Assembly: GCA_041483895.1 (NCBI GenBank)
Contig: JBGPGO010000005.1
Coordinates: 1 to 64,000 of the forward strand
Length of the DNA: 64,000 nt
Source of the DNA: Fimbriimonadia bacterium
Lineage (GTDB): Bacteria; Armatimonadota; Fimbriimonadia; Fimbriimonadales; JABRVX01
Direction: 5' to 3'
The position numbers and the translations under genes were made by a program. This document shows positions 14,567 through 48,170 of this stretch, piece by piece (position 1 is the first letter of the stretch; each line of letters starts with the position of its first letter). The notes beneath the pieces are model-generated. The model saw only the letters and a program-made list of their open reading frames with translations. It ran no database searches and had not been told where the DNA came from.

Positions 14567-15669
14567 TGGCGTATCGATCTGGGACGGTGGCGGTTGTGGG
14601 AGTGCCGAACGTGGGCAAGAGCACGTTGATCAATGCTTTGGTGCGGCAGAAGGTTGCTATCGTCTCCCCGAAGCCGCAGACAACGCGGCGCAATTTGCTG
14701 GGCATTCTTTCTCAGCCGGAATTTCAGATTGCGTTCGTCGATACGCCCGGTATGATCGCTCCCAAAAATCGGTTGGGCGTGCACATGCTTCGCTCGGCGA
14801 AGGAGTCGTTGGAACTGGCGGACGCGGTTCTGTTTGTTGTGGACGGATCGCATCTCCCCGGCGCCGGCGACCGGGAGGTTGCGGCCCTGATAACTCGAGT
14901 TGCGACAGGTCCGGGTGATGCGACCGGTCTCCTGACCGAGTCGCAAGTGAAGGAGGTTGGCGATGCGGCCGGTCTCCTGACCGAGTCGCAAGTGTTCACC
15001 CACAATACGACCTCTGATGATGCGACTCGGTCAGGAGACCGGTCGCATCATGCAAGACTTGATGTGTCGGGGTTCACTCTTAGCAATCCCGAACTACCAC
15101 CGATATCCAAGACCCCAACACCCGTCGTCCTCGCAATGAACAAGATGGACCGCCTGCCGGCGGACAAAGTGAAGGCGCACACCGAGGCCTACTGGGCGCT
15201 GTTGCCGGAAGGAACACCCTGGATGATGACCTGCGCCACGCGGAGAGACAACCTGGACAAGCTGCTGGAGCTCCTGGTCCCGCTGCTGCCGCATGGCGAG
15301 CCGCTCTACCCGGAGGAGCAGGTGACCGACGCCACTGAGCGCTTCCTGACCGCCGAGTTCATCCGCGAACAGGCGCTGCTGCTGGCGCACGAGGAGGTGC
15401 CGCACGCGGTGGCGGTGCTGATCGACCGGTGGGAGGAGCGGGAGAACGGCATGATCTACATCGCCGCGACGATCTACGTGGAGCGCGAGGGCCAGAAGGG
15501 GATTTTGGTCGGGAAGGGCGGGTCTATGCTGAAGGATATCGGGGCGCGTTCGCGCGTGCAGATCGAGGAGATGCTGGGGCGGAAGGTGTTCATGGAGCTG
15601 TGGGTTAAGGTCAAACCCTCCTGGCGCGACCGGCCAGGCACGCTGCACGAGTTGGAGTTGGACCGGTAG
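14566..15669 (+). CDS. era: GTPase Era with ~65-70 aa repeat-derived in-frame insertion
   Basis: GVPNVGKSTL, PQTTR, DTPG, NKMD, EEVPHA, VGKGG KH domain; insertion ~14905-15120. Confidence 0.95.
   Translation: MAYRSGTVAVVGVPNVGKSTLINALVRQKVAIVSPKPQTTRRNLLGILSQPEFQIAFVDTPGMIAPKNRLGVHMLRSAKESLELADAVLFVVDGSHLPGAGDREVAALITRVATGPGDATGLLTESQVKEVGDAAGLLTESQVFTHNTTSDDATRSGDRSHHARLDVSGFTLSNPELPPISKTPTPVVLAMNKMDRLPADKVKAHTEAYWALLPEGTPWMMTCATRRDNLDKLLELLVPLLPHGEPLYPEEQVTDATERFLTAEFIREQALLLAHEEVPHAVAVLIDRWEERENGMIYIAATIYVEREGQKGILVGKGGSMLKDIGARSRVQIEEMLGRKVFMELWVKVKPSWRDRPGTLHELELDR
14917..15122. repeat. intragenic mosaic: three family A palindromes plus one family C element
   Basis: GATGCG(A/G)CCGGTCTCCTGACCGAGTCGCA at 14917 and 14962, inverted copy at 15021-15049, C element 15061-15122. 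Confidence 0.9.
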
Positions 15670-15724
15670 GAGATTCTACGACACTCCTAATGATCATTTT
15701 CTCCCTTGGCAATCCCCAGTCCTT

Positions 15725-15940
15725 GCAGCCGCGGGTCCGTATGCCGATTGGCTGCTTGTGGACATAACCCAAGTGCCCGCAGCGTCGGCCCTTTTTGGAG
15801 CCGCCCGATGTGCCGGGGTTCACTTCTACGATCACGTGCGGAATTGCCGTTATCCTAGACCCCGGCACATCGGATTCCGTGTTGAGGTCTGAGGCGGTCG
15901 GCATACCGTGGCAATCGGAAGCCGAGGGCCCCAACACATC
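15725..15940. repeat. intergenic cluster of three family C elements
   Basis: units at 15725-15783, 15807-15871, 15879-15940; inverted ends with 40-41 nt dissimilar cores. Confidence 0.75.
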
Positions 15941-16016
15941 GCTGCCTTACCAAGCGCAGGAGAATCCAGAAGTATTCTTAGCGGACATCCGCCTCAACGA
16001 GTCCGCGAATTGTTCC

Positions 16017-16982
16017 CTAGTTAATTGTTTCCTGGGTGCCGGTACCGACCGAATCCAACCGGATGCCAAGCCTTTTTGCTTCTTCCGATTCAACCTGCCT
16101 TCTTCTTGACAAGACATCCGCCCGATAGAGTAGATCAAGGAGTTTCTGAACTGGAGTGACAATCGCTATCCCCATGTTTACCTGCGCATCACCGATCTTG
16201 GCAAAGTCTGCTATCTCCTCATCTCCCCTGTCCCAATGGCCCCGAATGATGCCGAGAAGTCGCAAACGCCAGTCGAAAATCACGTGCCCACTCTCGATGC
16301 GACCAGGAGTCTTTACAACAAGAACGGGTGATCCGCTTAATCCCCCGATAGATCGTGATTCGATTAGATATGCATCAAATTCGCCTTGCTTATCCTCCAA
16401 AGGCTCCTCTGGCATGGCCGCAATCGAGCCGGTCCGCAAGATTGGGATGTTCCGCTGTCTTCCATGTCGTCGGACAAAAAGGCCGGGTATGACCACCTCG
16501 TCACCAATGCCGACATCACAATCCCGAGCTACTTCCTCAGTTGCAAAGGAGGCTTCTTCAAGTGGGGAAACCTCAAGGTCCTCATCAAAGAACATTGGGA
16601 GGACAGCTAGATCGATCATTGGGTCTTCGGGGACTATCCAATTCCCAGTGATCTGACTGTAAATGTGCTGGCAATCGCGAGTATTCAGCCTGAGATAAAG
16701 ATCGCCGTGCGATTTCGCATTTTCCGCGACATGGCGAGCAGTGACAACATACAGAAATCTCGCGCCTTCCATTCTCTCTGCCTTGACACGAACAAAAAAT
16801 GCAGTCCCACAACAAGCAAACTTGCGCGAGTGTTCTGCCCCACCAACATTCACTGCCAAGAACGCGACGCATCTCTTAATGGCATCCGGAATCCTCATCT
16901 CAGTATCCTTTGGGTTTCCTAAAACCCAGGGGTCCCCGCCTAAATGCCGGTCCCAAAGTAAGATGCTCGTTGATACCGCCAA
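16017..16982 (-). CDS. trypsin-like serine protease
   Basis: VTARHV, DLAVL, GGLSGSPV catalytic triad motifs; start could be 16898. Confidence 0.8.
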   Translation of the reverse strand: MAVSTSILLWDRHLGGDPWVLGNPKDTEMRIPDAIKRCVAFLAVNVGGAEHSRKFACCGTAFFVRVKAERMEGARFLYVVTARHVAENAKSHGDLYLRLNTRDCQHIYSQITGNWIVPEDPMIDLAVLPMFFDEDLEVSPLEEASFATEEVARDCDVGIGDEVVIPGLFVRRHGRQRNIPILRTGSIAAMPEEPLEDKQGEFDAYLIESRSIGGLSGSPVLVVKTPGRIESGHVIFDWRLRLLGIIRGHWDRGDEEIADFAKIGDAQVNMGIAIVTPVQKLLDLLYRADVLSRRRQVESEEAKRLGIRLDSVGTGTQETIN

Positions 16983-17077
16983 GCATTACATCCTGTCAAG
17001 GGATAATTGACCTCAACAATGTGTTAGTTGATGGATTATTTTTTTGCCTACGTGTCTTCGTCGGGTACGATCTGCAC

Positions 17078-17362
17078 ATGTTTCCAATGGACGATGTACA
17101 CGTCGTGATCCGCCTGAACAAGTTTCTCGCGGCGAAGGGGTCTAACACTGTTGCCAGGGTTAGAGAGCCTGGGCAAGCCATACCGTTAGCCAACGTGAGT
17201 GACGTAATGGCTGTCGCGCACGACGAAGGCATCCTGAAGGAGGCTTTCCGAGGCAAGCTAACCACGGAAGCAGTCGACCTGTTCGAGTCAGTGCGCGGGC
17301 AGCTCCAGTGTAAGGAACTCGCCAACGCGACGATAGCGGAAGTGGAGCGGTTCTTCAGTTAA
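17078..17362 (+). CDS. hypothetical protein
   Basis: open frame 16910..17362, plausible ATG at 17078; no recognisable motif. Confidence 0.4.
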   Translation: MFPMDDVHVVIRLNKFLAAKGSNTVARVREPGQAIPLANVSDVMAVAHDEGILKEAFRGKLTTEAVDLFESVRGQLQCKELANATIAEVERFFS

Positions 17363-17648
17363 GCAACGACATCGCCGAGTCCTTACTTCACTGGCGAACC
17401 ACCCGCGTCATCTCGTTGCCGATACCGTAATCTCTCGACAGGCTCTATAATGAAGAATTACAAGACTTATTGGTGCTGAATCCGACCCACTCCAATCGAC
17501 GCGCGTGAAATCTTGGAGGAAATGGCCAGCAGAGGATTTTTCCCCTGGGCGTTCGATAAAACCCTCGACGACCGCCTGCAAACGTGGCGTTAATTCCTCG
17601 CAAAGCTGTATACTGTTAATCACGAAGATTTCGAGCGGGAGGGCGGAC

Positions 17649-19190
17649 ATGTTATCTCGGATACTAACTTTGCTATGGATAGTCATCGGAAGTCAGGCGT
17701 TCGGTCAATACGACCCTGCGGCCTGGCCGATGTACCAACACGATGCGCAGAGGACCAGTCGCAATGACTTTGTAGCAGTCGTTTCGCCTCCGGCATTCAA
17801 CTGGGTGACGGATTGTGCAGCGTTTTCGAGCACCTCCATCGCCACCGACAATGTCGGAAACGTCTTTTTGGGCACTGGCTGGTTTGGCTTCACATCGCTC
17901 GACCCCGTCGGCGCGCTCCGTTGGGCGTATCCTCCCATCAGCGGGGAGCCTATCGTGCTGCCAACTGGGCATGTAGTTTGTGCCTCGGGCAGTGGCGATC
18001 TATTTGATCCGGACGGCCATCGATTAATGAGATTCTACATACCAGGTGGATCGCCTCGCATAGTTGTGACAGATCAAGGCTTTATCGTCGGTTCAAACGG
18101 AATTTCTAAACCTTTTGAAGGAAGTTACGTTTCTCTTAGCACCGGCTATGAAGCTGTCATTGGTCGCGACGGAAACGGCTATTCAGTAAAGGGATCTGGG
18201 CTGTGGGCCATTTCACTCGATCAGTTTGACATGAAGGGCTCGGTGAAAACCTCTCCGATCGCCATTCACGCTGCTAACCCCGCACGTATAGCATTCTTCG
18301 GAAAAAACCAACTTGTCTTCACTGCCTATTTTGGCGAATCTCCATCTTTTGCCGGCGGCCTCGTCTGCATCGATACGAAGGGCAATGTGCTGTGGTCCGT
18401 CGCTTGGCCGGGTGGAACCGCTTCCTCACCTGTTGTCGGACGTGACGGCACTGTTTACGCATACTTGTATTTGGGCGCGGTCCCCCTGAGTCTTGTCGCG
18501 GTCAAGGGGGGCCAGGTCCTTTGGACCACGCCACTATTCAACGAATTGGACTCTGCCCGACCTCCGGTTATCGATGCCGACGGGAGCATATTGGTCGTAA
18601 ACCGGGAGGGAAGAATAGTTTGTTTAGCCCATGACGGCACATTCAAGTGGAGCAAGGACGTACCGCCAGTATGGCACTATTCAATACCCATGGACCCGTG
18701 CCTCTCGCCCAGCGGATTGATCGTTGGAGCCAATGACGGATTCTTGTATTCGCTCAAGACAGAGACAAAGCGCCGAATTGTGAAGGCCACCGTTGAGTTT
18801 GATGGTATAGCCGCCTCTGCCTCACCACCTACCATTGAGTATGATGTGCGGTTGCCTGGCAGCAATCTCCCGTTTCTGTGGAGACGAGTCAATCCAAACG
18901 CCGACGGAACCTACTCCCTAGATCTGCCGGTCGGCTCATTCGACATCGGACTCAAAGCGGACAAGTGGTTGTCCGCCCTCGTACCATCAGTAGATTATCA
19001 GACTTCAGAGATTTCCGTGTTCTGTCTCGGCGGCGACGTCAACAATGACGATGCCGTAGACCTCTCCGACGTAAATGCGGTTCTCATTGACTTCATGGGG
19101 TCTGAGGCCGACGTGGATCTTGATGGGGAGACAAATCTATTGGATTTCAATGAAATCCTAATCAACTTTGGACTGGTGGGAGAGTGGTAG
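17649..19190 (+). CDS. secreted PQQ-like beta-propeller protein with C-terminal dockerin-like domain
   Basis: signal peptide, WPMYQHDAQRT, SSPVVGRDGTVY, DGTFKW repeats; GDVNNDDAVDLSD...DVDLDGETNLLD. Confidence 0.75.
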   Translation: MLSRILTLLWIVIGSQAFGQYDPAAWPMYQHDAQRTSRNDFVAVVSPPAFNWVTDCAAFSSTSIATDNVGNVFLGTGWFGFTSLDPVGALRWAYPPISGEPIVLPTGHVVCASGSGDLFDPDGHRLMRFYIPGGSPRIVVTDQGFIVGSNGISKPFEGSYVSLSTGYEAVIGRDGNGYSVKGSGLWAISLDQFDMKGSVKTSPIAIHAANPARIAFFGKNQLVFTAYFGESPSFAGGLVCIDTKGNVLWSVAWPGGTASSPVVGRDGTVYAYLYLGAVPLSLVAVKGGQVLWTTPLFNELDSARPPVIDADGSILVVNREGRIVCLAHDGTFKWSKDVPPVWHYSIPMDPCLSPSGLIVGANDGFLYSLKTETKRRIVKATVEFDGIAASASPPTIEYDVRLPGSNLPFLWRRVNPNADGTYSLDLPVGSFDIGLKADKWLSALVPSVDYQTSEISVFCLGGDVNNDDAVDLSDVNAVLIDFMGSEADVDLDGETNLLDFNEILINFGLVGEW

Positions 19191-19203
19191 GAGACGTACC
19201 GGT

Positions 19204-19582
19204 AATTCCCCAGTCGCTTCGCTCCTTCGGAATGACAGCGTGGACGGTTTGCGGCCAAAGTGGCTGTCATTTCGAAGCGAGAAATCCCTTTCAGGACCTC
19301 TCGACATCGGCCAATGATTGTGCTCGCCGGAAACTCCTGAAAGAGATTCCTCAGTCGCAAGCTCCTTCGGAATGACAGCGTGGGCGGTGTGTTGCCAAAG
19401 TGGCTGTCATTTCGAAGCGGAGCGAGAAATCCCTTTCAGGACCTTCCGCTGGCAACCGGGCCGGGTGCACCCAGGATGCTTCAGAAAGAGATTCCTCAGT
19501 CGCAAGCTCCTTCGGAATGACAGCGTTGTTGCCACCAACCAGAAAGGGGTTCCTCAGTGGCAAGCTCCATCGGAATGACAGC
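19204..19582. repeat. BIME-like array of family B palindromes
   Basis: four GATTCCTCAGTCGCAAGCTCCTTCGGAATGACAGC-like units and two inverted GCTGTCATTTCGAAGCG..GAAATCCC units; ~140-bp tandem duplication. Confidence 0.85.
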
Positions 19583-19594
19583 GGGGTGGCGGGA

Positions 19595-20737
19595 TCAGCG
19601 GCCCTTTTTTTCTCCTGTCCAGTCGGCGAATTGGTCGTCCGACGTGCTGAAGGTCAGGCGGGTGCGGTTCGAGCCGTCCGCGCTCATTACATAGAGCTGC
19701 GTCGGTTCATCTCTTGCGGGCCGCATGGCGACCAATAGATAGCTGCCACTTGGCGACCAGGTGATGCTCGCGATCAGCTCCGCCTCGCCGGGTTGCAGTT
19801 TCAGCGGCGTGGCCGTATCGGATATCGTATCGACAATGAAGGGCGTCGGCGCATTCGCGATCATCCGCTTGCCATCCTTCGACCAACTGGGCCGAATTTT
19901 CGACGGCAAATACACAGCGAAATCATGCGGCTGCCCCGTGGTCAAATCGAAAATCGCATCATCAAAGTTGTTGCCGTCCCGAAGCCCCGGGACCACGAGT
20001 CGCCTGCCGTCCGGCGAAACGTCGAATGCCGGATAGGTCCAAGCCATGTTGTTTTGGTCCGGCGAGGTTTCGACGATCGGCGTGGGATCGAAACGGTTCC
20101 ACGGGGTGCGGAAAACCTGCCACTTCTGATTCTGGTTGGCAAGGAAGTAGATGGATTTTCCGTCCGGCGCCCATCGCGGCAGTGTCTCGGCGGACGGCGT
20201 GTTGCTGAGGTCGCGGTAACGCGCGCCATTCTTATCCATCGTGCACAACTCCAAGAACAGACCTTCCCGCGCCAACGTGAACGCAATCTTCTTGCCGTCA
20301 GGCGACCTGACCGGGTTGGCCTCATTATCCGATGTATCCGTAAGCCGAGTGATCCCCGATCCGTCCGCGTTCATCGCATAGATATCGGTGTTGCCGGCGC
20401 GATTGGATTGGAAGACGATGTGGCCAGTGATATTCGGCCGCCGTACGGACAGGACTTTTCTTCCCGCCGGTCCTGAAAACGTGACAACAAATTCGTCGCC
20501 GGATTTCTCCAGCCGGTCAAACATTGCCGCCACATTGGCCACCTGCGTTCGTCCGACGGTCTCGACGGTATCGTCGATCCGAATTCCCGCGCGTTCCGCG
20601 ACGCTGCCGGCGGCGACGGCAATGACACGCGGTCCCGCGCCGCCATCTTCCAACGTCATTCCGAAGACATCGCTATGGGGCTGGGCGAAGAGGGTGCAGG
20701 CGCACGCGCAGGCGAGGATTGTCAGTATTTGGCGCAT
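19595..20737 (-). CDS. secreted PDZ + TolB-like (PD40 repeat) protein
   Basis: GSVAERAGIRIDD PDZ; SNRAGNTDIYAMNADGSG, SPDGKKIAF, WSPSG repeats. Confidence 0.8.
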   Translation of the reverse strand: MRQILTILACACACTLFAQPHSDVFGMTLEDGGAGPRVIAVAAGSVAERAGIRIDDTVETVGRTQVANVAAMFDRLEKSGDEFVVTFSGPAGRKVLSVRRPNITGHIVFQSNRAGNTDIYAMNADGSGITRLTDTSDNEANPVRSPDGKKIAFTLAREGLFLELCTMDKNGARYRDLSNTPSAETLPRWAPDGKSIYFLANQNQKWQVFRTPWNRFDPTPIVETSPDQNNMAWTYPAFDVSPDGRRLVVPGLRDGNNFDDAIFDLTTGQPHDFAVYLPSKIRPSWSKDGKRMIANAPTPFIVDTISDTATPLKLQPGEAELIASITWSPSGSYLLVAMRPARDEPTQLYVMSADGSNRTRLTFSTSDDQFADWTGEKKGR

Positions 20738-20751
20738 GTCTGGAGTTTACT

Positions 20752-21768
20752 TCAAACCAAGCTGGCGGATTGTGCGGCGACTGAGATTGGATACTGGTAT
20801 TCCAGCAGGCCGTGCTTGATGCAGAGTGTTTGGAACAGTTCCAGGCCTTGGAGGTGCTCGGGCGTCAGATCGTAGTTCATCACTTCCGTCAGGTATTCCA
20901 CGCATAGGCCTCGATCCCAGCCATGCTCGGTTGCGTGCTGCTCAGCAAGCTGTACCAGGCGCGATGTGCCGGACTCTTTGGCATCCAAGAGAAGAGAGCA
21001 GAGGGCTGGGTCCAAGTTCTCTCCGATCCAGGCCGCCCAGACGAACGGCAGTCCGGTCAGTTCGTGCCAGGCCTGGCCGAGGTCCAGAACTTGGAGACCG
21101 TCCGAAGGCGCGAACATCCCGATGTCGCCGATCAGCACGCAGGCGTCGTTTTGGGCGAGCATCGCCATGGGGTCCGGCGGCAACGACGACACCATGGGCC
21201 AGGAGGAATAGATTTCGGCCAGGAGCAGTTGTGCGAGATGGGTGGAGGTGAGGGAGCTTTGGTCCAGCGCGAGGGTCTCGATCTCTTCCATCGGTTTTTT
21301 GGACAGTAGCCGCACGCTCATCACGCGTCCGACGGAACTGATGGAGATATCCGGGGCCATCTGGAGGCCAGGGCGGAGGAGGAGTTCGTATGACGACACC
21401 ATGGCGGCTTCTAGTTTGCCGAGTCGCAACGCGGTCGCGAGGCGGGATGGGGTGTCGTAGACGATTTCCAATGGCGGGGTCTTGGTTGGCGGCTTGCGAG
21501 AGGATTCGGTAATAGTGAACCCCGCCACATCACCCATTTCCTCTCGTGGCCGGGTCTTTGGGAACTGCTCTTCCGGCCACTCTGCATGCGAGGACCCTGC
21601 CACATCGTTAACGTCATCACGCTTGACTTGCGACTCGGTCGGGAGACCGGTCGCATCATTGCGTTTTTCTTGCGACTCGGTCGGGAGACCGGTCGCATCA
21701 TTTGCATCATTTTCCAAAGAATCGACCAGCGGGCGGGCGTTGAGGTAGGGGACGCTGCCGATCCTCAT
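20752..21768 (-). CDS. mqnA: chorismate dehydratase (futalosine pathway) with ~80 aa repeat-derived in-frame insertion
   Basis: RIGSVPYLNARPL, SSLTS, LIGD, DLGQAWHELTGLPFVWAAW; ATGA overlap with mqnP. Confidence 0.9.
   Translation of the reverse strand: MRIGSVPYLNARPLVDSLENDANDATGLPTESQEKRNDATGLPTESQVKRDDVNDVAGSSHAEWPEEQFPKTRPREEMGDVAGFTITESSRKPPTKTPPLEIVYDTPSRLATALRLGKLEAAMVSSYELLLRPGLQMAPDISISSVGRVMSVRLLSKKPMEEIETLALDQSSLTSTHLAQLLLAEIYSSWPMVSSLPPDPMAMLAQNDACVLIGDIGMFAPSDGLQVLDLGQAWHELTGLPFVWAAWIGENLDPALCSLLLDAKESGTSRLVQLAEQHATEHGWDRGLCVEYLTEVMNYDLTPEHLQGLELFQTLCIKHGLLEYQYPISVAAQSASLV
21471..21699. repeat. intragenic mosaic: two family C plus two family A elements
   Basis: C at 21471-21531 and 21546-21606; A (TGCGACTCGGTCGGGAGACCGGTCGCATC) at 21629-21657 and 21671-21699. 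Confidence 0.9.
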
Positions 21769-22652: not shown

Positions 22653-22824
22653 ATATCTTCAATATCAATTGTACCCGGCACTCCGTCCAGGCCATGGAAG
22701 GGGCAGACTATGGAATTGACCCTAGAAATGCTTTGATTTGGGTCCTAATTTGGGGAACTAACCGAACCTTGAGCCGGTTTTCAGCGTATTGAGACTAGAA
22801 AACTGTTCGTTGGGGAGGGTCTCG

Positions 22825-23007
22825 ATGGCCACGGACACGATTGACAGATATGCAGCGGTCGATTTGACGGAAGATGAGGCGTTTGCCCTCCTGTCCATGT
22901 GCGTTTTGAGCATCAAGACGGTGGATGACGAGGCCAGGTCAGCCTTGGAAAAGCTCAGCGCGTATTGCAAGTCTTTCCTGCCACGCGCGGTTGCTGCCGA
23001 GGCATAG
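22825..23007 (+). CDS. small hypothetical protein (60 aa)
   Basis: GGAGG SD before ATG; helical-looking sequence LTEDEAFALLSMC..ALEKLSAYC. Confidence 0.6.
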   Translation: MATDTIDRYAAVDLTEDEAFALLSMCVLSIKTVDDEARSALEKLSAYCKSFLPRAVAAEA

Positions 23008-23014
23008 CTATACT

Positions 23015-23110
23015 CTGTCATTCCGAAGCGAAGCGAGGAATCCCTATCAGAAGCTTCCAACTATTGACGACCTCCTGAAAGGGATTCCTCGCTTCGCTTC
23101 GGAATGACAG
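23015..23110. repeat. inverted pair of family B palindromes
   Basis: CTGTCATTCCGAAGCGAAGCGAGGAATCCC ... GGGATTCCTCGCTTCGCTTCGGAATGACAG. Confidence 0.85.
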
Positions 23111-23126
23111 ACAAATCACCGAGGTG

Positions 23127-24569: not shown

Positions 24570-24669
24570 TCTATGCCTTTCGCGAATATCGTATCATAGA
24601 TACAGTCGCAGCGATGTCATACGTTTCACTGACACAGCGCCCCAATAATCGACACACTCCCCGGCCTCC

Positions 24670-35537: not shown

Positions 35538-36925
35538 TCATGGACTTAGTTCCGGGCTGGTGTCGGTCCCCTTCGTCGATTCGCATACAAGGCGGAGCCG
35601 CTTACCTTGCGTGAGGGCGAAGGCGGTGCTGAGGAAACCCATACCCTCCAACACATTGGCATCAAGGACCTTGGTGTCGCCGGCGAATCCGACCAGGTGG
35701 ATATTGAGCTTCCATGTATCGCAATCCTTGCCGTCCAAATAGACTCTCACAACGCCGGAGTCAATTCGTTCGATGACCGTTTTTGCGCCTTGGGATGCCA
35801 GGCTCGAAGGTTCCCAGATAACCTTCCTTGAGGTTCCATCCTTGGCGGCAGTTGCCGGGGGTAGGGTCTTGCCATTCGCCAGGACATACTCGTTCGAATT
35901 CTCGTCCCAATGAATATCAAGCGCATTCATCTCAGTCACCATCTGTTCCCACGGCTTGGCGAATGCGGAATGGCCCGGAGACAAGCTGATATATCGCCCG
36001 CTAGGATAAACGTCGCCAAGCAAATGTAACATCTGTTCCTGAACCTTCTCAAGTAGACCGAAGTTCGATGATATAGTACTATCAGTCCTTAGTTTCTCAA
36101 CTATCTCCCACGGCATGTCAGTAGGGCGAAGAGGTATTGTTCGCATTTTCCCGATTTTCATCAAGCGATCAAGCAATAAAAACACTGCATGACGAATCGG
36201 CATGCCGAAAATCGAATGAGGAGGTATCGGGGACAATGGGATGCCGTCAACGAGATAGTAGGGGTAGTACGGCACTTGTTGAGGGTCTGCCGGTATCTCA
36301 AACACCATGTTGACGGTGCACTCTGATGTGTTGCCTCCCAGTCGCAAGAACTCTCGCAAAATGGCGAGCCCCTGCGGCGCCCCCAAGGAAACGATCGCGT
36401 TCACTTCCTTGATGACGTCTATGGGATTGAAGTCACTGTACTCGCTGAATGGATGGCTATAACCACTCGGTTCTTGTCGATGCTTGCCACTAGAGGCGTG
36501 GAGGAATCTCAAGCCGCGACACATGGTCTGCTCGTCGATTGTTGCTGGTTGTGGCGCGTCCCAAGGGAAATGATGTTCCACCTTGCCATTTCCGTCGAAC
36601 CTAACGAGTCCAAGAATCGGGAAGTCGTCGGTCGGTATCGTTCCATACAGCCATTCGATCCCATTGGGCTTGCCGTCATATCGGCGCGCTTCTCGCTTCA
36701 AATCCGGCGTTCCGAGCAGCTTTGCGACTTGTTCTTTGGTCATGCCGTACTTGACCTGGTTCATCTGCGTTTGTAACCGCATTCGGATGCCCGGCTCGAT
36801 GCGCTCCGCAGGATTTTGCGGGACGGCAGCAAGCCTCGAAGGCGCCCCGGTCGTCTCCGGCGACCTTATTCCGCAACCAACACCGAAGGCAGTGAAAACA
36901 ATCGCCGGAATGGCAAAGTATAGTT

Positions 36926-36929
<4 letters not shown>
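35538..36929 (-). CDS. lipoprotein with SmpA/OmlA-like N-terminal domain
   Basis: lipobox-like VGC, VKYGMTKEQVAKLLGTPD..WLYG; ATGA coupled to upstream paralog. Confidence 0.65.
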
Positions 36930-40563
<3,634 letters not shown>

Positions 40564-40565
<2 letters not shown>

Positions 40566-40621
40566 CGTGGGTCTAGGTTCTAGTAGTTGTTTAAGAAAAT
40601 GGCAAACTGACCCACGGCTAC
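40564..40621. repeat. family C-like element
   Basis: AGCGTGGG-TCTAGG...AACTGA-CCCACGGCTAC, 39-nt core. Confidence 0.55.
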
Positions 40622-40862
40622 TCAAAATCGAATTACGTTATCAAACGGGTTTTTGCCTATCCCCGCATTTGTCCGCTTCGGGGGGACGCGACGGCGTGGT
40701 ACAACCGGGTGTCAGGGAAAGATAGATGCGCGGCGAAGCAGAGAAACTTGAAATGATTGTGAGGAGATAACTCGCCCAATGATAGGTGCAGGGGGCCGAG
40801 CCACCCCAAGGTAAGGAAGAATGAACTTGATTTGCCCTTGATGAAGCAAAGGTCAAGGGTTG

Positions 40863-40914
40863 AGGCGGACCCCTATGCGACCGGTCTCCCGACCGCGTCG
40901 CATGGGGTCCGCTT
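40863..40914. repeat. family A palindrome within an extended hairpin
   Basis: AGGCGGACCCC-TATGCGACCGGTCTCCCGACCGCGTCGCAT-GGGGTCCGCTT. Confidence 0.75.
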
Positions 40915-40936
40915 GTTATTTGGGGTAGAACAGGAC

Positions 40937-41224
40937 ATGCCCACGTATGTGGGGGTAGCCACCCTGGACATGGCGCTTCCCGCGACCCAATCCCTCAAGG
41001 ACAAACGCGCGATTGTGCGTAGCGGCATCGCCACGGTGCAGAACCGCTTCAAGGTCGCGGCGGCGGAAGTGGGAGCGCTCGGTACGTTTCGGCGGGCGGA
41101 GGTTGCCATTGCGGCGGTGGGAAACAATCGGGCTTCTTTGGAATCCCTATTGGATGGCGCGGTACGGCATTTGGAACGCGATCCCCGATGGATATTGGAA
41201 GGCGTGAGCGTGGAGTTTCTGTGA
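40937..41224 (+). CDS. DUF503 (YlxP-like) protein
   Basis: SLKDKRAIV, RFKVAAAEVG; usual position before rbfA. Confidence 0.85.
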   Translation: MPTYVGVATLDMALPATQSLKDKRAIVRSGIATVQNRFKVAAAEVGALGTFRRAEVAIAAVGNNRASLESLLDGAVRHLERDPRWILEGVSVEFL

Positions 41225-41571
41225 AGGCACGACTGGTTCAGGTCGAATCGATGTTGGTGGAGAAGATATCTGGCATCCTTCGCCGAGAGGTGACGGATCC
41301 GCGTGTCGGTTTCGCCACGGTGACTCGGGTGCGCGTGTCGCCGGACCTCAACGAGGCATATGTGGACGTGAGCGTTTTGGGAAGCCCGGAGGAGCAGGCT
41401 CTGACCATCGAGGCGCTTCAAAAGGGCGCGGGGTTTATTCAGCATCATCTGGGCAAACAGATTCATTTGCGGCGAACGCCCCATCTGCATTTCGCCCTCG
41501 ACCACACGCCGGAGGAAGCGATACGGCTGACGCACATCATCGATGAAGCGCCGAAGGGCACAGGCGAGTGA
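41221..41571 (+). CDS. rbfA: ribosome-binding factor A
   Basis: DPRVGFATVTRVRVSPDL, LRRTPHLHF. Confidence 0.92.
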   Translation: MKARLVQVESMLVEKISGILRREVTDPRVGFATVTRVRVSPDLNEAYVDVSVLGSPEEQALTIEALQKGAGFIQHHLGKQIHLRRTPHLHFALDHTPEEAIRLTHIIDEAPKGTGE

Positions 41572-42536
41572 AGCCGGTCGAGCAGGCAGCCGAGACACTG
41601 CGTCGGGCAAACAAGATACTGATCGGCGCGCACGTCAATCCGGACGGCGATGCGCTGGGGAGCGCGTTGGCGCTGACCTGGGCGCTGCGGGCGGCCGGCA
41701 AAACGGTCGAGCCGCTCTGCCAGGACCCGGTGCCGGACAACCTGCATTTTCTTCCCGGTTCGGATTGGTTGCGCGAATCGCCCACATTCACCGACTGCGA
41801 TTTGGGGGTGCTGGTGGACCTGGAAGGCCTATCCCGACTTGGGCGCTTGGCTCAGATATTCGAACAGGCTCCTCACCTAATGACGATCGATCATCATATT
41901 CCAGACCAGGCGGTCGGCGACGTTCGCTTTATCGATCCCGAGGCGGCATCCACTTCGGAGCTGATCTATGCCGTGCTCCGCGAATTTGGAGCGACCATAG
42001 ACAAGAATGTCGCGACCTGCTTGCTGACTGGGTTGGTCACCGACACCGGCGGATTCAAGTTTCCCAACACCAAGCCGCGTCATTTGGTGCTTGCGGGCCG
42101 GCTGATGCGCGCAGGGGCAAACCTGACAACGATCTTTGAAGAGGCGTATGAAAAGCGCAGCTTCGGGGCGCAGCAGCTACTGGGCCGTGCCTTATCGGGA
42201 TTGCAGCGATCGAAGGACGGTCATGTTGTTTGGGCGGTGATCCGGCACGCCGATTTCCGCGACACGGGATCGGCGGATGAGGACACTGACGGGATCGTCA
42301 ATCATGTACGCGCTGTGGAATCGAGCGAGGTGGGAGTTCTCTTTCGCGAAACCATGCCGGGACGGGTCCGAGTCAGCCTGCGGGGCCGGGGCCGCGTCAA
42401 TGTCGCGTCGATTGCGAAGGCGTTCGGTGGCGGCGGACACGCGAACGCGGCTGGCTGCTCTTTTACAATGGATGTGGACGAGGCGGTGCGGCAAACGCTG
42501 GCGGAGGTCGAAAAATGGACGGCTTCCTTATCGTAA
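41568..42536 (+). CDS. nrnA: DHH/DHHA1 bifunctional oligoribonuclease/PAP phosphatase
   Basis: HVNPDGDALGS, IDHH, TDTGGF, GGGGHANAAG. Confidence 0.88.
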   Translation: MKPVEQAAETLRRANKILIGAHVNPDGDALGSALALTWALRAAGKTVEPLCQDPVPDNLHFLPGSDWLRESPTFTDCDLGVLVDLEGLSRLGRLAQIFEQAPHLMTIDHHIPDQAVGDVRFIDPEAASTSELIYAVLREFGATIDKNVATCLLTGLVTDTGGFKFPNTKPRHLVLAGRLMRAGANLTTIFEEAYEKRSFGAQQLLGRALSGLQRSKDGHVVWAVIRHADFRDTGSADEDTDGIVNHVRAVESSEVGVLFRETMPGRVRVSLRGRGRVNVASIAKAFGGGGHANAAGCSFTMDVDEAVRQTLAEVEKWTASLS

Positions 42537-43372
42537 ATAAACCCGTCGGTCCCACATCCCACGACGTGGTCAGCCGGGTCCGGAAGGTGTTCAACATCAA
42601 GAAGGTCGGCCATGCCGGGACGCTGGACCCGCTCGCATCCGGGGTTCTTGTCATGGCGATCGGGCGCGCAACGCGGCTGCTCAGCTATGTCCCCCTGGAG
42701 CCGAAGGGCTACCGATTCACGCTCTGCCTGGGAGCGCAGACAACAACGCAGGACTTGGAGGGCGAGCTGATCCACGAAGTCGATGCCTCTGCCATATCGC
42801 GCGATGATGTTGCGGGCGTTTTGCCGCGATTCACGGGGGAGATTGAGCAGGTCCCGCCGATGCATTCGGCCGTGCATCACGAAGGGCGACGTCTCTATCA
42901 ACTGGCGCGGCAGGGGATTGAGGTGGAACGCCCGCCGCGTACGGTAACGATTCACCGGCTAGAGATTGTCGGCTTTTCCGCCGGCGTCCGGGCGCTTGTG
43001 GAGATTAACTGTGAATGCTCCGGCGGGACCTATATGCGAACGCTCTGCCATGATATCGGCGAGGCGCTTGGGGTGGGCGGATATATGCAGCAGCTTCATC
43101 GCACACAGTGCGGAGCGTTTTTCGATCGGGATGCGGTTTCGCTCAACGAACTTTCCGTCGATTTTCCGCTATTGCCGGCGCTCACCGTGTTGCGGCAATA
43201 TGACCGGTTCCGACCGGGCGAGACGGGGTTGGCGAAAGTGCTGCATGGCAACGAGGTGCGCCCAACAAAGCCGCCGGCGACACCTATCGTATGTATTATT
43301 GATGGCGAAGAGTTGGTCGCCCTCGCGCGCTGGGATCCTCCCTATCTGCGTCCGTTCTTGGTTCTCAATTAG
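42515..43372 (+). CDS. truB: tRNA pseudouridine(55) synthase
   Basis: KPVGPTSHDVV, GHAGTLDPLASG, CSGGTYMRTL. Confidence 0.95.
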   Translation: MDGFLIVNKPVGPTSHDVVSRVRKVFNIKKVGHAGTLDPLASGVLVMAIGRATRLLSYVPLEPKGYRFTLCLGAQTTTQDLEGELIHEVDASAISRDDVAGVLPRFTGEIEQVPPMHSAVHHEGRRLYQLARQGIEVERPPRTVTIHRLEIVGFSAGVRALVEINCECSGGTYMRTLCHDIGEALGVGGYMQQLHRTQCGAFFDRDAVSLNELSVDFPLLPALTVLRQYDRFRPGETGLAKVLHGNEVRPTKPPATPIVCIIDGEELVALARWDPPYLRPFLVLN

Positions 43373-43377
43373 AAATT

Positions 43378-43434
43378 GTGGCCGCGGGTCCGTCTGCCGA
43401 TGCCTTTCGATTGGCAATTCCTAAAGGCCTGCGG
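43378..43434. repeat. family C-like element
   Basis: GTGGCCGCGGG-TCCGTCTGCCGAT...AAAGG-CCTGCGG, 39-nt core; resembles the 15725 copy. Confidence 0.5.
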
Positions 43435-43440
43435 AGTGTG

Positions 43441-44871
43441 CTACTTCCCAACTTCCGCTGAGTCTTTCGCTTCCTGCAAGGTGGGGTCCAACTCCACGGC
43501 GATGATCTTGCCAATGCGCTCGGATGCCCCCACGTTTACAGCGATCATGTGTTGCGCATTCTCCCCGATCTCACGGCGGAGGTCCGGGTTTTGCAGCAGC
43601 TCAAGCAGCTCTTCTGCCACGGATTCCGCCGTGTCTAAGCGAAAGCCGACCCCTTCCCTTTCCGCCATCTCGGCGATGTCGCGAAAGTTGCTCATCGCGG
43701 GACCGTAGATTGTCGGCAGGCCGAGCGCCAGCGGCTGAAAGATGTTCTGCCCGCCGAAGCCACCGAAACCGCCGCCGACAATCGCAACGTCCCCCGCGCC
43801 ATAGGCCCGACCCAGCTCGCCGAAGGTGTCCAGGAGGAGGCAGTCCGAACCCTTCACAGTGCGACTGTGAAGGGATGCCTCTAGGATCCCCTCCCCCGCT
43901 TGCGGGGGAGGGTTAGGGTGGGGGTCTTCCGCAGCGGCTTGCGACTCGGTCAGGAGACCGGTCGCATCACATTTTTTGGGACCGGACGCATCGCTCGATC
44001 GTCTTCGTGGCGTGAAGCCGAAGCTGCGAATGGTCGCTTCCACTTCATCCGCGCGCTCGATGTGTCGAGGGGCGAGGATGAACGTTAGGTCGGGCAGTTT
44101 CTCGCGCACTTGGCGCAAAGCGGACAGGACCAGTTCCTCTTCTTCCGTGCTCCGCGTGCTGCCGACGACGACACACGGCACACCCGCGGAAATGCCGAAT
44201 TCCTGTCGCGCCTCGCCGGGAGAGAGCGTGGGACCGATGGCCTGATCGAACTTCGTATTGCCAACGTTAACAACGCGCAACGGATCAGCCCCAAGCGCAA
44301 TAATCCGTTCCGCGTCGATAGCGGACTGCATCAAACACCGGTGCACGTACCTCAGCATCGCGCGATAAAAAGATCGGAGCCGCATGGCTCGTGGAAAGCT
44401 CCGATCGGAAAGACGCCCATTAATCAGAAAGCACTTGGCCCCAACCACGTCCGCCGCCCACAGGAAGTTGAGCCACAGCTCCGTCTCCATCATCACCACG
44501 GCCTTCGGACGCACCGCCAGCATCGCGTTCAGCGTCCACCGCGCGACGTCCATCGGAAAGTAGATCAGATGATCGAAGAGCCCATCCGCCCCGTCGCGCG
44601 CGGCTTGCTGACCACTGCTGGTGGTGGTGCTCAAAACGATTTCGAATCCCGGCATCTTTTCGCGCAGCTTTTTCAGAACGGGCACAGCCGCATGCACCTC
44701 GCCGACCGATACCGCGTGCAGCCAGATCCGATCCGGTCCCGGGGCGAGCGGTACGCGACCCATCCGCTCGGCCCTCCGCACTTTTTCGCGACGCCGGCGC
44801 GAGCGGAACCAGGCCCAAGGCAGCCAGAACGGCGAGACAAGCGTGACCAGGATATTGTAAATCCAAAACAT
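43441..44871 (-). CDS. waaA: Kdo transferase with ~40 aa repeat-derived in-frame insertion
   Basis: IWLHAVSVGE, ETELW, NGRLS, GNTKFD, APRH, DTFGEL, GGQN. Confidence 0.92.
   Translation of the reverse strand: MFWIYNILVTLVSPFWLPWAWFRSRRRREKVRRAERMGRVPLAPGPDRIWLHAVSVGEVHAAVPVLKKLREKMPGFEIVLSTTTSSGQQAARDGADGLFDHLIYFPMDVARWTLNAMLAVRPKAVVMMETELWLNFLWAADVVGAKCFLINGRLSDRSFPRAMRLRSFYRAMLRYVHRCLMQSAIDAERIIALGADPLRVVNVGNTKFDQAIGPTLSPGEARQEFGISAGVPCVVVGSTRSTEEEELVLSALRQVREKLPDLTFILAPRHIERADEVEATIRSFGFTPRRRSSDASGPKKCDATGLLTESQAAAEDPHPNPPPQAGEGILEASLHSRTVKGSDCLLLDTFGELGRAYGAGDVAIVGGGFGGFGGQNIFQPLALGLPTIYGPAMSNFRDIAEMAEREGVGFRLDTAESVAEELLELLQNPDLRREIGENAQHMIAVNVGASERIGKIIAVELDPTLQEAKDSAEVGK
43850..43968. 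repeat. intragenic mosaic: 11-bp hairpin, family E and family A
   Basis: CCCTTCACAGT-gcg-ACTGTGAAGGG (43850-43874), CCCTCCCCCGCTTGCGGGGGAGGGTTAGGGTGGGGG (43888-43924), A at 43940-43968. Confidence 0.88.
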
Positions 44872-45533
44872 CAGGAGACCAGCTCTTCAGCCCGCGCTTC
44901 CAAACGGTCGATCTCTTTGGCCAGGCATTCGGCGAGCGCGGCTTCCCTTTCGGCGCACATGTCGGCCTGGACGATGACGGGCTTGCCAAAGACAATGGCG
45001 GCGCGGGCGAACGGCGCGGGGATCAGATAGCTGTCCCATGTCGGGATCAGTTTGCGCGGGCGGGCGCTGATGCCGACGGGGATGATTGGGCGGCCCGATT
45101 TCTTCGCGATCAGCAGGGCGCCTTCGCCGAACTTCTTGGTGGGCCCGCGCGGTCCGTCGGGGGTTACGGTCAAGATGCCCCCTTCCCCCACGCGCTTGGC
45201 GGCTTCCAGCGCCGCACGAATTCCGCCGCGCCCGGTGGAGCCCCGGATGATCTGGAAGCCAAATCTGCGGAAGATGCGGTTTTGGATTTCGCCGTCGCGC
45301 GAGAGGGAGATGATGGCCCATAAGCCCTGCTTGGCGAAGTAGTTGGCGGGAACGAACGACCGGCCGTGCCAGGACACCAGCACCGCGCCGCCATCCTTGG
45401 TGGCCTCATCGAGGTTCTCCTTCCCTTCGATTCGGTAGTGGAGGGTCTTGCCGACGAGCCGGGCGGCGGACCACACCAGCGCGCCCGCCACTCCCGGCCT
45501 CAACCCGTCCCACAGTTCACGGATCCTTCCCAT
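44871..45533 (-). CDS. DUF374 lysophospholipid acyltransferase-like protein
   Basis: WHGR, SRDGE, RGSTGRGG, TPDGPRGP, WDSYLIPAPF; coupled to waaA. Confidence 0.85.
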   Translation of the reverse strand: MGRIRELWDGLRPGVAGALVWSAARLVGKTLHYRIEGKENLDEATKDGGAVLVSWHGRSFVPANYFAKQGLWAIISLSRDGEIQNRIFRRFGFQIIRGSTGRGGIRAALEAAKRVGEGGILTVTPDGPRGPTKKFGEGALLIAKKSGRPIIPVGISARPRKLIPTWDSYLIPAPFARAAIVFGKPVIVQADMCAEREAALAECLAKEIDRLEARAEELVS

Positions 45534-45548
45534 TCGAGGGAATTCTAC

Positions 45549-46694
45549 CTACGGCGGGTTATCCGCGGGCCGGAGGAGTTGTTCCGGTTCCGTTTCTGTG
45601 TTTGACGCTGCCCGAAGAAGCAATGCTTCGTCCTCAGAGGAAGAGGCCCGGAGGAGAGTGGCGCGATCTTCGGCCCGGCGGCGATTCTCTTGCACGGCGG
45701 CCAGGGCGGCCTCGGCAGCGTCGATAACAGCGGATCCAGGTTCGGCCAGCAGCGCGATGGCCTCTACCGCTTTCTGCGTTGAGAGAAATGATGCGGCATG
45801 CAATGCGGCGATGACGAGCTTTTCATCTTTGTCCCGAAGCAATCGCAGCAGGTTTGCCTGCTGATGCTCGTCCAAGACAGCGATATTCTCCTCTCCGGCG
45901 ACGGTAAGGATGTTGGGGAGGATTTGGATTGCCGTGGTTCGCGTCACGTTGTCCCCGGACGCCAACAACAGTGGACCAAGTGCCTTCGGATTATTGAAGA
46001 GAGCGATCGCACCTAAATGCTTTCGCCGGTCGCCACGCACAAGTACGGTAACGATCCAACCGCCACCGAACATGGCCAAGAACTGCACGCTGGTTCTGAA
46101 GATAGTCCATACCTCCGGTTCGAGCTTCCTTAGGTTTCCCGACAGCCGCCACCAGACCATCAAGAATAGGGCCATCCACATCAGGAAAATGAACCCTACT
46201 CTGGCTCTCTTCGCTAAACGTGCGGCGTTTTCAAGTCTTACGGTAGCACTCAGCAAGACGGCAAAGGCTTCCGGCGTGCCCACTTTAGCCAAGGTAGCCG
46301 CAGCGATCGCTTGCGCCTTCCGATCGCGGCCATTAAGAAGTCGCTGCAGTAACGGAATTGCTTCTTCTCCCATGGCCTCGAGCGCCATCCGCTCCCCACC
46401 ATCGCTGCTCCTTTTATCCGCCTCCAATCTGGCCATCAGAGCTTTCAAGTCCTCCTTTTCTTTGCGCTCTAACTCTTTGGCGTCAGTCACCAGGCGACGT
46501 CGATATATGCGGTGCTTGCAGTGGACGCATATCCAGGCGGGCAGTCCGATGGGTCGGTAATAGAAGACGGTCGAACTCTTCCAACCGCAGTTCGGGCATG
46601 CACGCTCCCAAGAGTCGTCCTCGGGCTCGGCCTCCTCTGAATCCAGTGGTGGTGTGTAGAATGGATCGTCTTGCCGTTTCCCATCCAAATCCAT
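45549..46694 (-). CDS. Zn-ribbon / HEAT / 2-TM protein with C-terminal LLR repeats
   Basis: CPNC..CVHC, HEAT-like repeats, ATLLRA..LLLRAA..QLLRPA. Confidence 0.6.
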   Translation of the reverse strand: MDLDGKRQDDPFYTPPLDSEEAEPEDDSWERACPNCGWKSSTVFYYRPIGLPAWICVHCKHRIYRRRLVTDAKELERKEKEDLKALMARLEADKRSSDGGERMALEAMGEEAIPLLQRLLNGRDRKAQAIAAATLAKVGTPEAFAVLLSATVRLENAARLAKRARVGFIFLMWMALFLMVWWRLSGNLRKLEPEVWTIFRTSVQFLAMFGGGWIVTVLVRGDRRKHLGAIALFNNPKALGPLLLASGDNVTRTTAIQILPNILTVAGEENIAVLDEHQQANLLRLLRDKDEKLVIAALHAASFLSTQKAVEAIALLAEPGSAVIDAAEAALAAVQENRRRAEDRATLLRASSSEDEALLLRAASNTETEPEQLLRPADNPP

Positions 46695-46739
46695 ATCTCA
46701 ATTGTACAGCAGATTGCATCTCGCGGGTAGAGTTGGGGG

Positions 46740-48170
46740 GTGGAGTTTGGGATTTATGTTCACACGCCGTTCTGCCCCAGCAAGTGCGGGTACTGCGACT
46801 TCAACTCGTACGCCATGTCGGGGGAGATCATGGAGCGGTTCACCGAGGCGGTGATCCGGGAGATCCGGTCGTCGCCCTTTGCCGGGCGGCGGGCGGACAC
46901 CATCTTCTTCGGCGGCGGAACGCCGACGTTCTTGCCGCACGGGCACTTGGAGGCGATCCTCCTGGCGATCACTGATACCTTTCCCTTAACCCGCAACGCT
47001 GTCATTCCGAAGCGAAGCGAGGAATCCCTTTCTTCGGCGTTGGGATGCGGAGAGAGGGATTCCTCTGTCGCTTCGCTCCTTCGGAATGACACCAAAGAAA
47101 ACCCCCACCCCTTCGACAAGCTCAGGGCAGGCTCTAACCCTCCCCCTTACTCGTTCCTCGCAAGGGGGAGGGGACCAGACGATGCTGAAAACCGCTCCGA
47201 TGCGACCGGTCTCCTGACCGAGTCGCAAGTGTCCGCCGAGTCTCCTGACCGAAATCCGGAAAACCCCCACCCTAACCCTCCCCCTTACTCGTTCCTCACA
47301 AGGGGGAGGGGACTTGGGATCGAAGTCACCTCCGAGGCGAATCCGGGGACGGCGGATGCGGGGAAGTTTGCGGCCATGCGGCGGGCGGGGTTCAACCGCA
47401 TCTCTATCGGGGCGCAGAGTTTCGACGATGACGAATTGCACAGATTGGAGCGGGTGCACAAGGCCGACGAGATCGGTCGCGCGGGGCTGCTGGCGCGGGA
47501 GGCTGGGTTCGAGAACCTGAACCTAGACCTGATGTTCGCGCTACCGCTGCAGACGATGGAGCGTTGGCGGGAAAACCTGGAGCGCGCCATCGCGTTGGCG
47601 CCGGAGCATCTATCGCTCTACTGCCTCACCATCGAGCCGGGGACCAAATTTCACACACTGCGCCAAAAGGGCGAGCTGCCGCTGCCGGACGACGACGCCA
47701 CGATGGAGATGCTGTTGCTGGCGAAAGAGGTGGCGGAGGCGGCGGGGTACCGGCAATACGAGATTTCCAACTTCGCCAAGCCGGGATACGAGTGCCGGCA
47801 CAACCTGATCTATTGGCGAAACGAGGAATATTTGGGTTTCGGGCCGGGGGCGGTGTCGTTTGTTAGTGGCGAGCGGAGGATGAACACACGCCATCCGCGC
47901 AAGTACATTCAGTCCGGCGGAGTGTGTGAATCCGAGCGCGTTTCGGCGGAGGTTTCGTTTGGGGAGACGATGATGTTGGGGCTGCGGCTTAACGACGGGA
48001 TTGAACTGGCACGATTGGAGGCCCGGCATCCGGAGATGTTTGCGCAATTTCGTGCGGTGGCTGCCGAGTTGGTGGAGATGGGGTGGTTGAATTTGGATTG
48101 CTCGCGGATTTGGCTGACGGACGAGGGGCGGCTGTTTCATAATGAGGTAGCGATGCGGTTTTTGCCGTAA
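46740..48170 (+). CDS. hemW: radical SAM heme chaperone with ~110 aa repeat-derived in-frame insertion
   Basis: YVHTPFCPSKCGYCDF, FGGGTP, EANPG, RISIGAQSF, YEISNF, HNLIYW. Confidence 0.92.
   Translation: MEFGIYVHTPFCPSKCGYCDFNSYAMSGEIMERFTEAVIREIRSSPFAGRRADTIFFGGGTPTFLPHGHLEAILLAITDTFPLTRNAVIPKRSEESLSSALGCGERDSSVASLLRNDTKENPHPFDKLRAGSNPPPYSFLARGRGPDDAENRSDATGLLTESQVSAESPDRNPENPHPNPPPYSFLTRGRGLGIEVTSEANPGTADAGKFAAMRRAGFNRISIGAQSFDDDELHRLERVHKADEIGRAGLLAREAGFENLNLDLMFALPLQTMERWRENLERAIALAPEHLSLYCLTIEPGTKFHTLRQKGELPLPDDDATMEMLLLAKEVAEAAGYRQYEISNFAKPGYECRHNLIYWRNEEYLGFGPGAVSFVSGERRMNTRHPRKYIQSGGVCESERVSAEVSFGETMMLGLRLNDGIELARLEARHPEMFAQFRAVAAELVEMGWLNLDCSRIWLTDEGRLFHNEVAMRFLP
46999..47311. repeat. 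intragenic mosaic of families B (pair), E with nested F, A, E
   Basis: B 47000-47028 and 47056-47091; E 47101-47173 with F at 47111-47134; A 47199-47227; E 47263-47311. Confidence 0.9.

Follow-up and report, generated by a model that had tools for sequence, protein, structure and literature searches.

The window, as the stretch of DNA considered here is called, covers the opening 64 kb of contig JBGPGO010000005.1 (C5) of a Fimbriimonadia bacterium whose genome (GCA_041483895.1; 3.95 Mb, 43 contigs) is 95% complete. Four genes of the window, era, mqnA, waaA and hemW, each carry an in-frame insert built from short repeats of several families that also occur between genes. An earlier reading made from the letters of the window (the sequence-only reading) had described these inserts as mosaics of palindromes. 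The family letters used below are those of the present analysis and are not mapped onto the letters of that reading. The genes, their inserts and the intergenic copies are listed in window coordinates.

14566..15669, plus strand: era, GTPase gene, intact; NCBIfam PRK00089 at 324.5 bits against a cut-off of 237; single match in its own genome
14911..15120, plus strand: era insert of 70 codons, amino acids (aa) 116-185; A at 14916-14948 and 14961-14993, inverted A at 15018-15050, E pair at 15059-15123
20752..21768, minus strand: mqnA, chorismate dehydratase gene; Pfam VitK2_biosynth, PDB relatives 7ahr/2nxo; single match in its own genome
21490..21708, minus strand: mqnA insert of 73 codons, aa 21-93; A at 21668-21700 and 21626-21658, degenerate E pair at 21579-21608 and 21510-21533
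43441..44871, minus strand: waaA (kdtA), Kdo transferase gene; Pfam Glycos_transf_N, PDB relative 2xci; single match in its own genome
43849..43986, minus strand: waaA insert of 44-46 codons, about aa 296-341; A at 43937-43969, B unit with triplex motif at 43883-43926, D at 43847-43876
46740..48170, plus strand: hemW, radical SAM heme chaperone gene; TIGR00539 at 300.8 bits against a cut-off of 205.4; single full match in its own genome
47001..47321, plus strand: hemW insert of 107 codons, aa 88-194; inverted C pair at 46998-47088 (a long hairpin), short extra motif at about 47110-47130, B at 47123-47184, A at 47198-47230, B at 47261-47322
15805..15942, no strand assigned: intergenic E pair directly after era
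19257..19441, no strand assigned: intergenic C copies, with a further C pair at 23013-23112
40873..40905, minus strand: intergenic A copy
48212..48301, plus strand: intergenic mosaic of E and B directly after hemW

Comparison with orthologs bears out the claim that these genes contain in-frame insertions. The alignments are the best-scoring subsets of 40 genomes, G036 included, that were searched for the four genes; the insert is missing from 13/13 aligned orthologs each of Era, MqnA and WaaA, and from 29/29 of HemW. The era site corresponds to about residue 113-115 of the solved Era 9jkp, immediately ahead of the NKxD strand. The hemW match splits at the insert in the 39 relatives of the 40-genome search in which both parts were matched, with a gap of at most 45 nucleotides (nt); in G004 the contig ends. 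An empty spacer of 29 residues is kept in 118 of 119 other HemW proteins, and the remaining one (P0049, from another genome) has an independent Gly/Arg-rich insert of 23 aa in the same loop. No partly filled sites were found in close relatives: the HemW search returned the same protein, relatives with an empty site and P0049, and a scan of metagenome contigs for Ffh, another host of such repeats, gave 80 distant loci at 40-50% identity. A phmmer search with the hemW insert against 1.84 billion representatives yielded five matches, namely the HemW protein itself, two repeat-derived open reading frames (ORFs) and two unrelated low-complexity proteins.

The motifs GxxxxGKS, DTPG and NKxD of Era and CxxxCxxC of HemW are unbroken and both proteins score above their NCBIfam cut-offs, in agreement with the earlier statement that catalytic motifs are preserved. 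WaaA falls under the lineage-specific NCBIfam cut-offs, yet it has the Pfam domain and a solved relative. The idea that intact second copies exist and that the insert-bearing versions are decaying found no support, one copy of each gene having been found in this genome. The predicted HemW model has a confident HemN-like core, where the predicted local distance difference test score (pLDDT) is mostly above 90. The insert forms a low-confidence loop between the helix 67-80 and the barrel strand 195-200, with pLDDT below 50 at aa 87-107 and 113-189.

The genome has undergone a lineage-specific bloom of about 14 families that resemble repetitive extragenic palindromes (REPs). Defined by over-represented words and counted at a score floor of 18 bits, they amount to 1525 copies in 745 clusters, 671 of which lie outside gene interiors. 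Families A, B, C, D, E and G have 160, 161, 81, 159, 315 and 144 copies, respectively, and the other families are smaller; units of 25-70 bp are stacked on one another. The occurrence of the insert units between genes, as the sequence-only reading had it, is far above chance: the family A pattern gives 145 matches, against none for the reversed pattern. The same pattern gives no match in 400 genomes of the phylum, none in five nearer genomes at 3 mismatches and no exact one in the GTDB collection, while family B has relatives in some neighbouring genomes. The short extra motif of the hemW insert has 19 matches vs. 3 in the control. The description of the units as short palindromes suits the hairpin families (z against shuffles of −6.0 for A and −9.4 for D) but not the E pair in era, which folds no better than shuffles (z −0.02). 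A and E begin with GATG and D with ATCC, so that the canonical REP guide GTAG/GTGG is missing from the hairpin foot of these families; GTAG stands there in I, J, L and N, and G has GTAA. The share of copies inside genes reaches 18/49 for K, 44/160 for A and 36/161 for B vs. 1/81 for C and 0/73 for J, the sole intragenic C copy being that of the hemW insert. Intergenic A copies have no strand bias (37 vs. 33), and multiples of three are mildly enriched in the spacing of intergenic units (68/46/45).

Several further observations concern these repeats. Copies of families G and M often begin at, or provide, the stop codon of the upstream gene (e.g., window 7887, C4:17863; other contigs of this genome are cited by such numbers), and a like placement is described for GTAG REPs in the available part of PMC3733652. 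Family G repeats lie near both the tRNA-Sec gene (window 8724-8818) and the tmRNA gene (54630-54984). At C16:42292-42843, a four-helix-bundle gene (TIGR04258) is flanked by family M, a 7-base tandem repeat, and also contains it.

The forecast that four cases in the window imply many in the genome proved correct. With a hexamer gene model made for this analysis and at least 30 good codons required on both sides, 74 clusters lie inside predicted genes. Fourteen were dropped: nine weak single matches (including one in rpoB), three tandem stretches of family M, one doubtful ORF and one cluster in the unmatched N-terminal extension of dnaE2. The remaining 60 clusters occupy 55 genes, and 18 of them are multi-family; mqnA is not among the 60, its insert lying too close to the gene start to pass the filter. 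Among the hosts are trmD, ffh, alaS, carB, purL, purA, hisF, aroE, queG, ribF, dapA, mnmG, glcD, dacB, imuB and dnaE2. Orthologs confirm an insert of 55 aa in ffh (empty in 5/5), one of about 70 aa in trmD (clear in 4/5; alignment ends overlap in G005), two of about 118 and 75 aa in dnaE2 (against G003), one of about 33 aa in alaS (empty in 4/4) and one of about 45 aa in carB. A profile break at the cluster was judged by eye in about 20 more hosts, and tblastn with ten of the hosts gave no second copy. The statement that families pile up at one site per gene applies to the four window genes and is not a genome-wide rule: queG, ppx and dnaE2 have two or more sites. The largest mosaics, with up to six families, are held by imuB and dnaE2 of an error-prone polymerase cassette (C8:63553-69256, L082); the dnaE2 frame opens with 241 codons that match nothing in relatives and that contain another mosaic. 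In alaS (C16:32510-35455, L060), a second insert of about 55 aa at aa 384-442 is likewise missing from 4/4 relatives; it is unique in the genome and does not derive from the repeats.

Whether these inserts are translated can be judged from the frames in which they are read. Among all the other clusters, a search for those with coding sequence on either flank produced 13 candidate split genes; 12 are ordinary gene junctions and one is doubtful, compared with 60 in-frame clusters. For 57 clusters, the used frame was compared with the other stop-free frames of the same element core. Net charge turned out to be lower in the used frame in 47 clusters and higher in 8, and Arg content was lower in 45 and higher in 11 (0/5000 permutations in both cases); Cys and aromatic residues were fewer in 38 and more numerous in 15 (permutation P 0.0006). 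The charge bias persists without families A and B (25/27) and with all 74 clusters kept (61 lower, 11 higher), while 271 untranslated clusters read in the frame of the upstream gene show 133 up vs. 134 down. In 15 of its 29 cluster-frame uses, family A yields the peptide DATGLLTESQ (P about 1e-4). Family B in coding clusters is mostly read as PHPNPPPQAGEG, which accounts for 10 of 13 uses of B1 (P about 3e-5). Strand bias relative to transcription or GC skew was considered as the cause of the frame bias of family A and does not explain it. Random insertion would mostly break the frame, yet at most one gene is split; together with the bias in Arg and charge, this points to translation. It is likely that the inserts are translated as disordered, floppy loops of up to about 110 aa. 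Those that persist keep the frame, lie in loops and are acidic or neutral and Arg-poor; selection may be what imposes this pattern.

As the sequence-only reading stated, there is no mobilising enzyme in the 64-kb window; candidates lie elsewhere in the genome. Among the enzyme types that it proposed to look for, genes of REP-associated tyrosine transposases (RAYTs) and a GIY-YIG nuclease gene occur with cognate repeats at their flanks, whereas DUF559 has no match in this genome. Eight RAYT genes were found, seven of them above the NF047646 cut-off: A, E and D flank one gene each, D3 flanks three and I two. With the GIY-YIG gene, six families (A, E, D, D3, I and C) have a flanked candidate enzyme. 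The genes for which positions are cited are the following.

C12:73415-73951: RAYT gene of family A
C6:123200-123739: RAYT gene of family E
C5:229682-230248: RAYT gene of family D
C28:215-502: GIY-YIG gene, 95 aa, single domain (Pfam GIY-YIG, E 4e-13), with family C to either side

An array of about ten family A units follows the cognate RAYT gene (L138:330-790, C12), with a C-rich spacer that resembles the start of B. No RAYT gene flanked by G, H, J, K, L or N was found in this genome. Family B agrees with the published TMECO/BoxC consensus in 41 copies at no more than one mismatch, compared with none in the reversed control. In related genomes, a looser hairpin pattern occurs within about 400 bp of 8/30 DUF559 loci vs. 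anywhere in 5/68 control loci, and the strict family B matrix at 2/30 DUF559 loci vs. 3/68 controls. At L174 (G009:C9, about 1346-2180), a DNA methylase has an intein-like insert, so judged by eye, that holds a DUF559 domain and is bracketed in frame by two family-B-like repeats; at L167 (G026) and L166 (G029), DUF559 and such repeat peptides stand in frame inside large restriction-modification-like proteins. These DUF559-bearing in-frame inserts are a candidate autonomous form of the B element. The RAYT and GIY-YIG enzymes of this genome probably spread the repeats, since their gene context suggests it and E. coli RAYT is described, in the available part of PMC3333891, as performing repeat-dependent single-strand cleavage and strand transfer.

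In general, these data suggest that the inserts are in-frame stacks of the multi-family repeats that also fill the intergenic DNA, spread by single-strand DNA nucleases whose genes lie elsewhere in the genome, translated, and tolerated as disordered surface loops. We assign this reading a probability of roughly 0.72. The scenario would begin with the bloom of REP-like families. To judge by gene context, RAYTs would serve A, E, D, D3 and I, and an Ssn-like GIY-YIG enzyme would serve C, while B, being of the TMECO/BoxC type, would have DUF559 as its likely partner. The enzymes would cut and join single-stranded hairpin DNA and add further units preferentially at a distance of a few bases from a hairpin already in place. 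As that hairpin may belong to another family, a first tolerated insert could grow into a mosaic. Selection would then keep inserts that leave the frame intact, lie in loops and are read as acidic or neutral, Arg-poor peptides.

The piling up of families also allows a reading without any targeting, in which units arrive at random and accumulate where loops and earlier inserts offer rare harmless places. The unrelated insert in the HemW loop of P0049 (1/119) accords with it and indicates that permissive loops also matter. Mosaics make up 20/44 of the multi-element clusters inside genes vs. 167/338 outside; the equal share accords with random arrival, and it also means that stacking is a property of the elements. 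At fine scale, different families lie within 20 bp of each other in 36 of 59 roomy intergenic regions, more than twice the expectation of 12.9 ± 2.8 for random positions or 15.3 ± 3.1 for empirical ones, and in 27 of the 59 regions an adjacent pair is more than 40 bp from both gene ends. Partners are preferred (B-E 22 observed vs. 7.1 expected, G-M 12 vs. 2.6, H-J 8 vs. 1.3, A-B 11 vs. 4.0), the relative orientation of A and B1 is fixed in 19 of 21 adjacent pairs, and inserts contain 22 arrivals of a second family, as against 2-4 expected from a neutral landing pad. Arrival without targeting is judged unlikely. We consider it about equally improbable that mosaics move ready-made, i.e., that composites such as B plus A are duplicated whole, either through a RAYT or through gene conversion from one cluster to another. 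The recurrence of B followed by A in fixed orientation, matches of 75-115 nt between loci and the B-like spacer in the array beside the family A RAYT gene speak for such copying. The B-A spacers, however, vary by locus in sequence and length (3-33 nt for B1-A), both orders occur, and no multi-family insert is like another locus over its whole length. Variable spacers and the lack of recurring whole mosaics favour assembly in place over moving composites.

A very improbable alternative is that splicing at the RNA level or translational bypassing at the ribosome, as in Magnusiomyces mitochondria, keeps the inserts out of the product and leaves the proteins normal. Bypassed palindromes do have a precedent, as cited in the available part of PMC6649704, and strong folding is predicted for the RNA of the hemW insert (z −7.4), but its two ends are not base-paired with one another in that fold. 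Skipping would require neither the frame, kept in 60 of about 61 cases, nor the biased peptide composition. Assembly artefact at repeats, or gene decay, seems if anything even less probable. Several of the 43 contigs start or end in repeats, none of the metagenome contigs compared extends over an entire insert, and those that cross the left hemW junction do so by only 25-27 nt. In addition, a HisF fragment of the Joint Genome Institute (JGI), P0130, differs from the genome's own HisF (P0129) inside the K insert, which may be a population variant or a misassembly. Near-identical sequence is present in sediment metagenomes. Contigs of four sediment runs (one run is possibly the source sample) agree fully with the assembly across the right hemW junction, 54 and 63 nt inside, and across the upstream waaA junction, 31 nt; among the metagenome joints listed none skips a whole insert. 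A second (JGI) assembly contains the same HemW, no further copies of the genes were found and they score above family cut-offs, and misassembly would neither keep frames nor bias peptides.

A number of points weigh against the reading of the inserts as enzyme-spread, translated stacks. Any region that lacks alignment depth is expected to have a low pLDDT, and the shift in disorder propensity is weak on the cores alone (p 0.13). Translation is deduced from statistics, not from protein or RNA. The clusters are not fully independent, B plus A arrangements being alike over 75-115 nt at 75-90%, and the frame bias could partly come from target choice biased by codon phase. The ortholog check covers 9 genes and the profile break by eye about 20 more, the remainder resting on the gene model. 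With survival of every arrival, the number expected from a landing pad becomes 11, and the calculation takes intergenic density as a measure of the arrival rate. The whole-region excess of mixed families, which would also suit random arrival, is modest: 165 vs. 98-137 under three nulls (137 ± 6 when length-weighted). Finally, B, G, H, J, K, L and N have no cognate enzyme found.

A bolder extension, offered tentatively and with the balance against it, is that RAYT, Ssn and probably DUF559 enzymes, single-strand nucleases unrelated to one another, cue on each other's hairpins, which would make a protein loop with one tolerated insert a self-reinforcing hotspot, and that frame selection turns such hotspots into lineage-specific acidic disordered loops of at least 100 residues in essential proteins, e.g., Era, Ffh and TrmD. 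If true, selfish DNA would in this way generally be able to give rise to new disordered regions of bacterial proteins, and the GATG-tagged REPs would represent an undescribed RAYT specificity. The old, mostly anecdotal idea that palindromic repeats seed protein sequence becomes measurable here in one genome. The six-frame comparison gives a signal of selection on the new peptides, candidate enzymes for six families are present in the same genome, and the adjacency statistics make a direct prediction on the target choice of REPs. The insert sites further mark out loops in Era, Ffh, TrmD, HemW, WaaA and CarB that apparently tolerate 45-107 extra residues.

Two other features of the window may be mentioned. 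A tandem pair of related unannotated genes (35538-38419) encodes proteins of 521 and 497 aa and has a 60-nt end in common, and a surface protein of 1298 aa (49783-53679) has five Big_3_5 domains and 294-bp repeats.

Among known systems, the closest likeness is to intragenic GTAG/CGTC REPs and BIMEs, which Di Nocera et al. (2013; PMC3733652) reported from many species; the available part of their paper has 70 rows for the free-living Opitutus terrae. As described there, these are short hairpins with cognate RAYT, with several families per genome, in frame in known proteins, and dnaE2 and FGAM synthase are among the hosts, both of which are hit in this genome too. Dimers, groups and one pair of neighbours from two families in one ORF (Oter_1797) are also described. 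Compared with the published clusters of 43-82 aa in the same excerpt, the present inserts are as long as 107-118 aa, the number of families is about 14, with at least three enzyme types, 18/60 clusters are multi-family, the hosts include era, ffh, trmD, alaS and waaA, and A and E start with GATG rather than GTAG. The present repeats are multi-copy, mostly intergenic hairpins, and RAYT genes are flanked by the same repeat for A, E, D, D3 and I. The 5' guide by which REPs are defined in the accessible text of PMC6006769 is GTAG or GTGG; the single GATG printed for the E. coli guide in PMC3333891, as far as its text was available, is taken to be a printing error, GTAG being given 20 times in the same text.

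The Rickettsia palindromic elements (RPEs) are described, in the available parts of PMC10969869, PMC2229807 and PMC3767692, as RPE-1 to RPE-7, units of 105-150 bp in a reduced intracellular genome. According to the same sources, Rickettsia Gmk with an RPE insert is translated and active, and one locus can carry RPEs of different groups in different Rickettsia species. Neither era nor kdtA, put forward by the sequence-only reading as possible RPE targets, is listed in the texts consulted. In-frame palindromic inserts in conserved genes with the frame kept are common to both. The difference is that the inserts here are stacks of 25-70 bp units forming mosaics, not single units of 105-150 bp with terminal inverted repeats, and that the genome, at 3.9 Mb, has retained candidate mobilisers. 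Among the NCBIfam matches of 69 proteins there was no RPE model, at an E-value limit of 1e-12 that is too strict for short domains. Family C resembles, by gene arrangement, the Ssn-related motifs with the SsnA GIY-YIG single-strand nuclease (Chenal et al. 2025; PMC11893778, in part), as it brackets the small single-domain gene at C28:215-502 on both sides; in this genome it is almost never inside genes (1/81). Family B has the C-rich stem, loop and two G-rich tracts of the TMECO/BoxC/PIT triplex motif (Holder et al. 2015; PMC4666352), which its 41 consensus copies fit, and it may form a triplex. According to the available text of that paper, the motif is always intergenic in E. coli K-12, whereas 36/161 B matches lie in coding clusters here.

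In the literature searched, which did not cover subscription journals and bioRxiv supplements, no account was found of multi-family in-frame mosaics of this size, of selection on frame composition or of GATG-tagged REPs. The sequence-only reading had proposed a new system in which several non-autonomous elements target permissive loops or each other. Several non-autonomous families are indeed present, with signs of both permissive loops and landing of one element beside another; the novelty has to be given up, because the accessible parts of the literature already hold the intragenic REPs of Opitutus (Oter_1797) and different RPE groups at one Rickettsia locus. The inserts work like intragenic REP or RPE insertion: A, D and E have RAYT partners but lack the canonical guide, and the units differ in build from RPEs. 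The basic phenomenon of intragenic REPs is thus already known from Opitutus and Rickettsia, and the genome described here presents a more extreme form of it.

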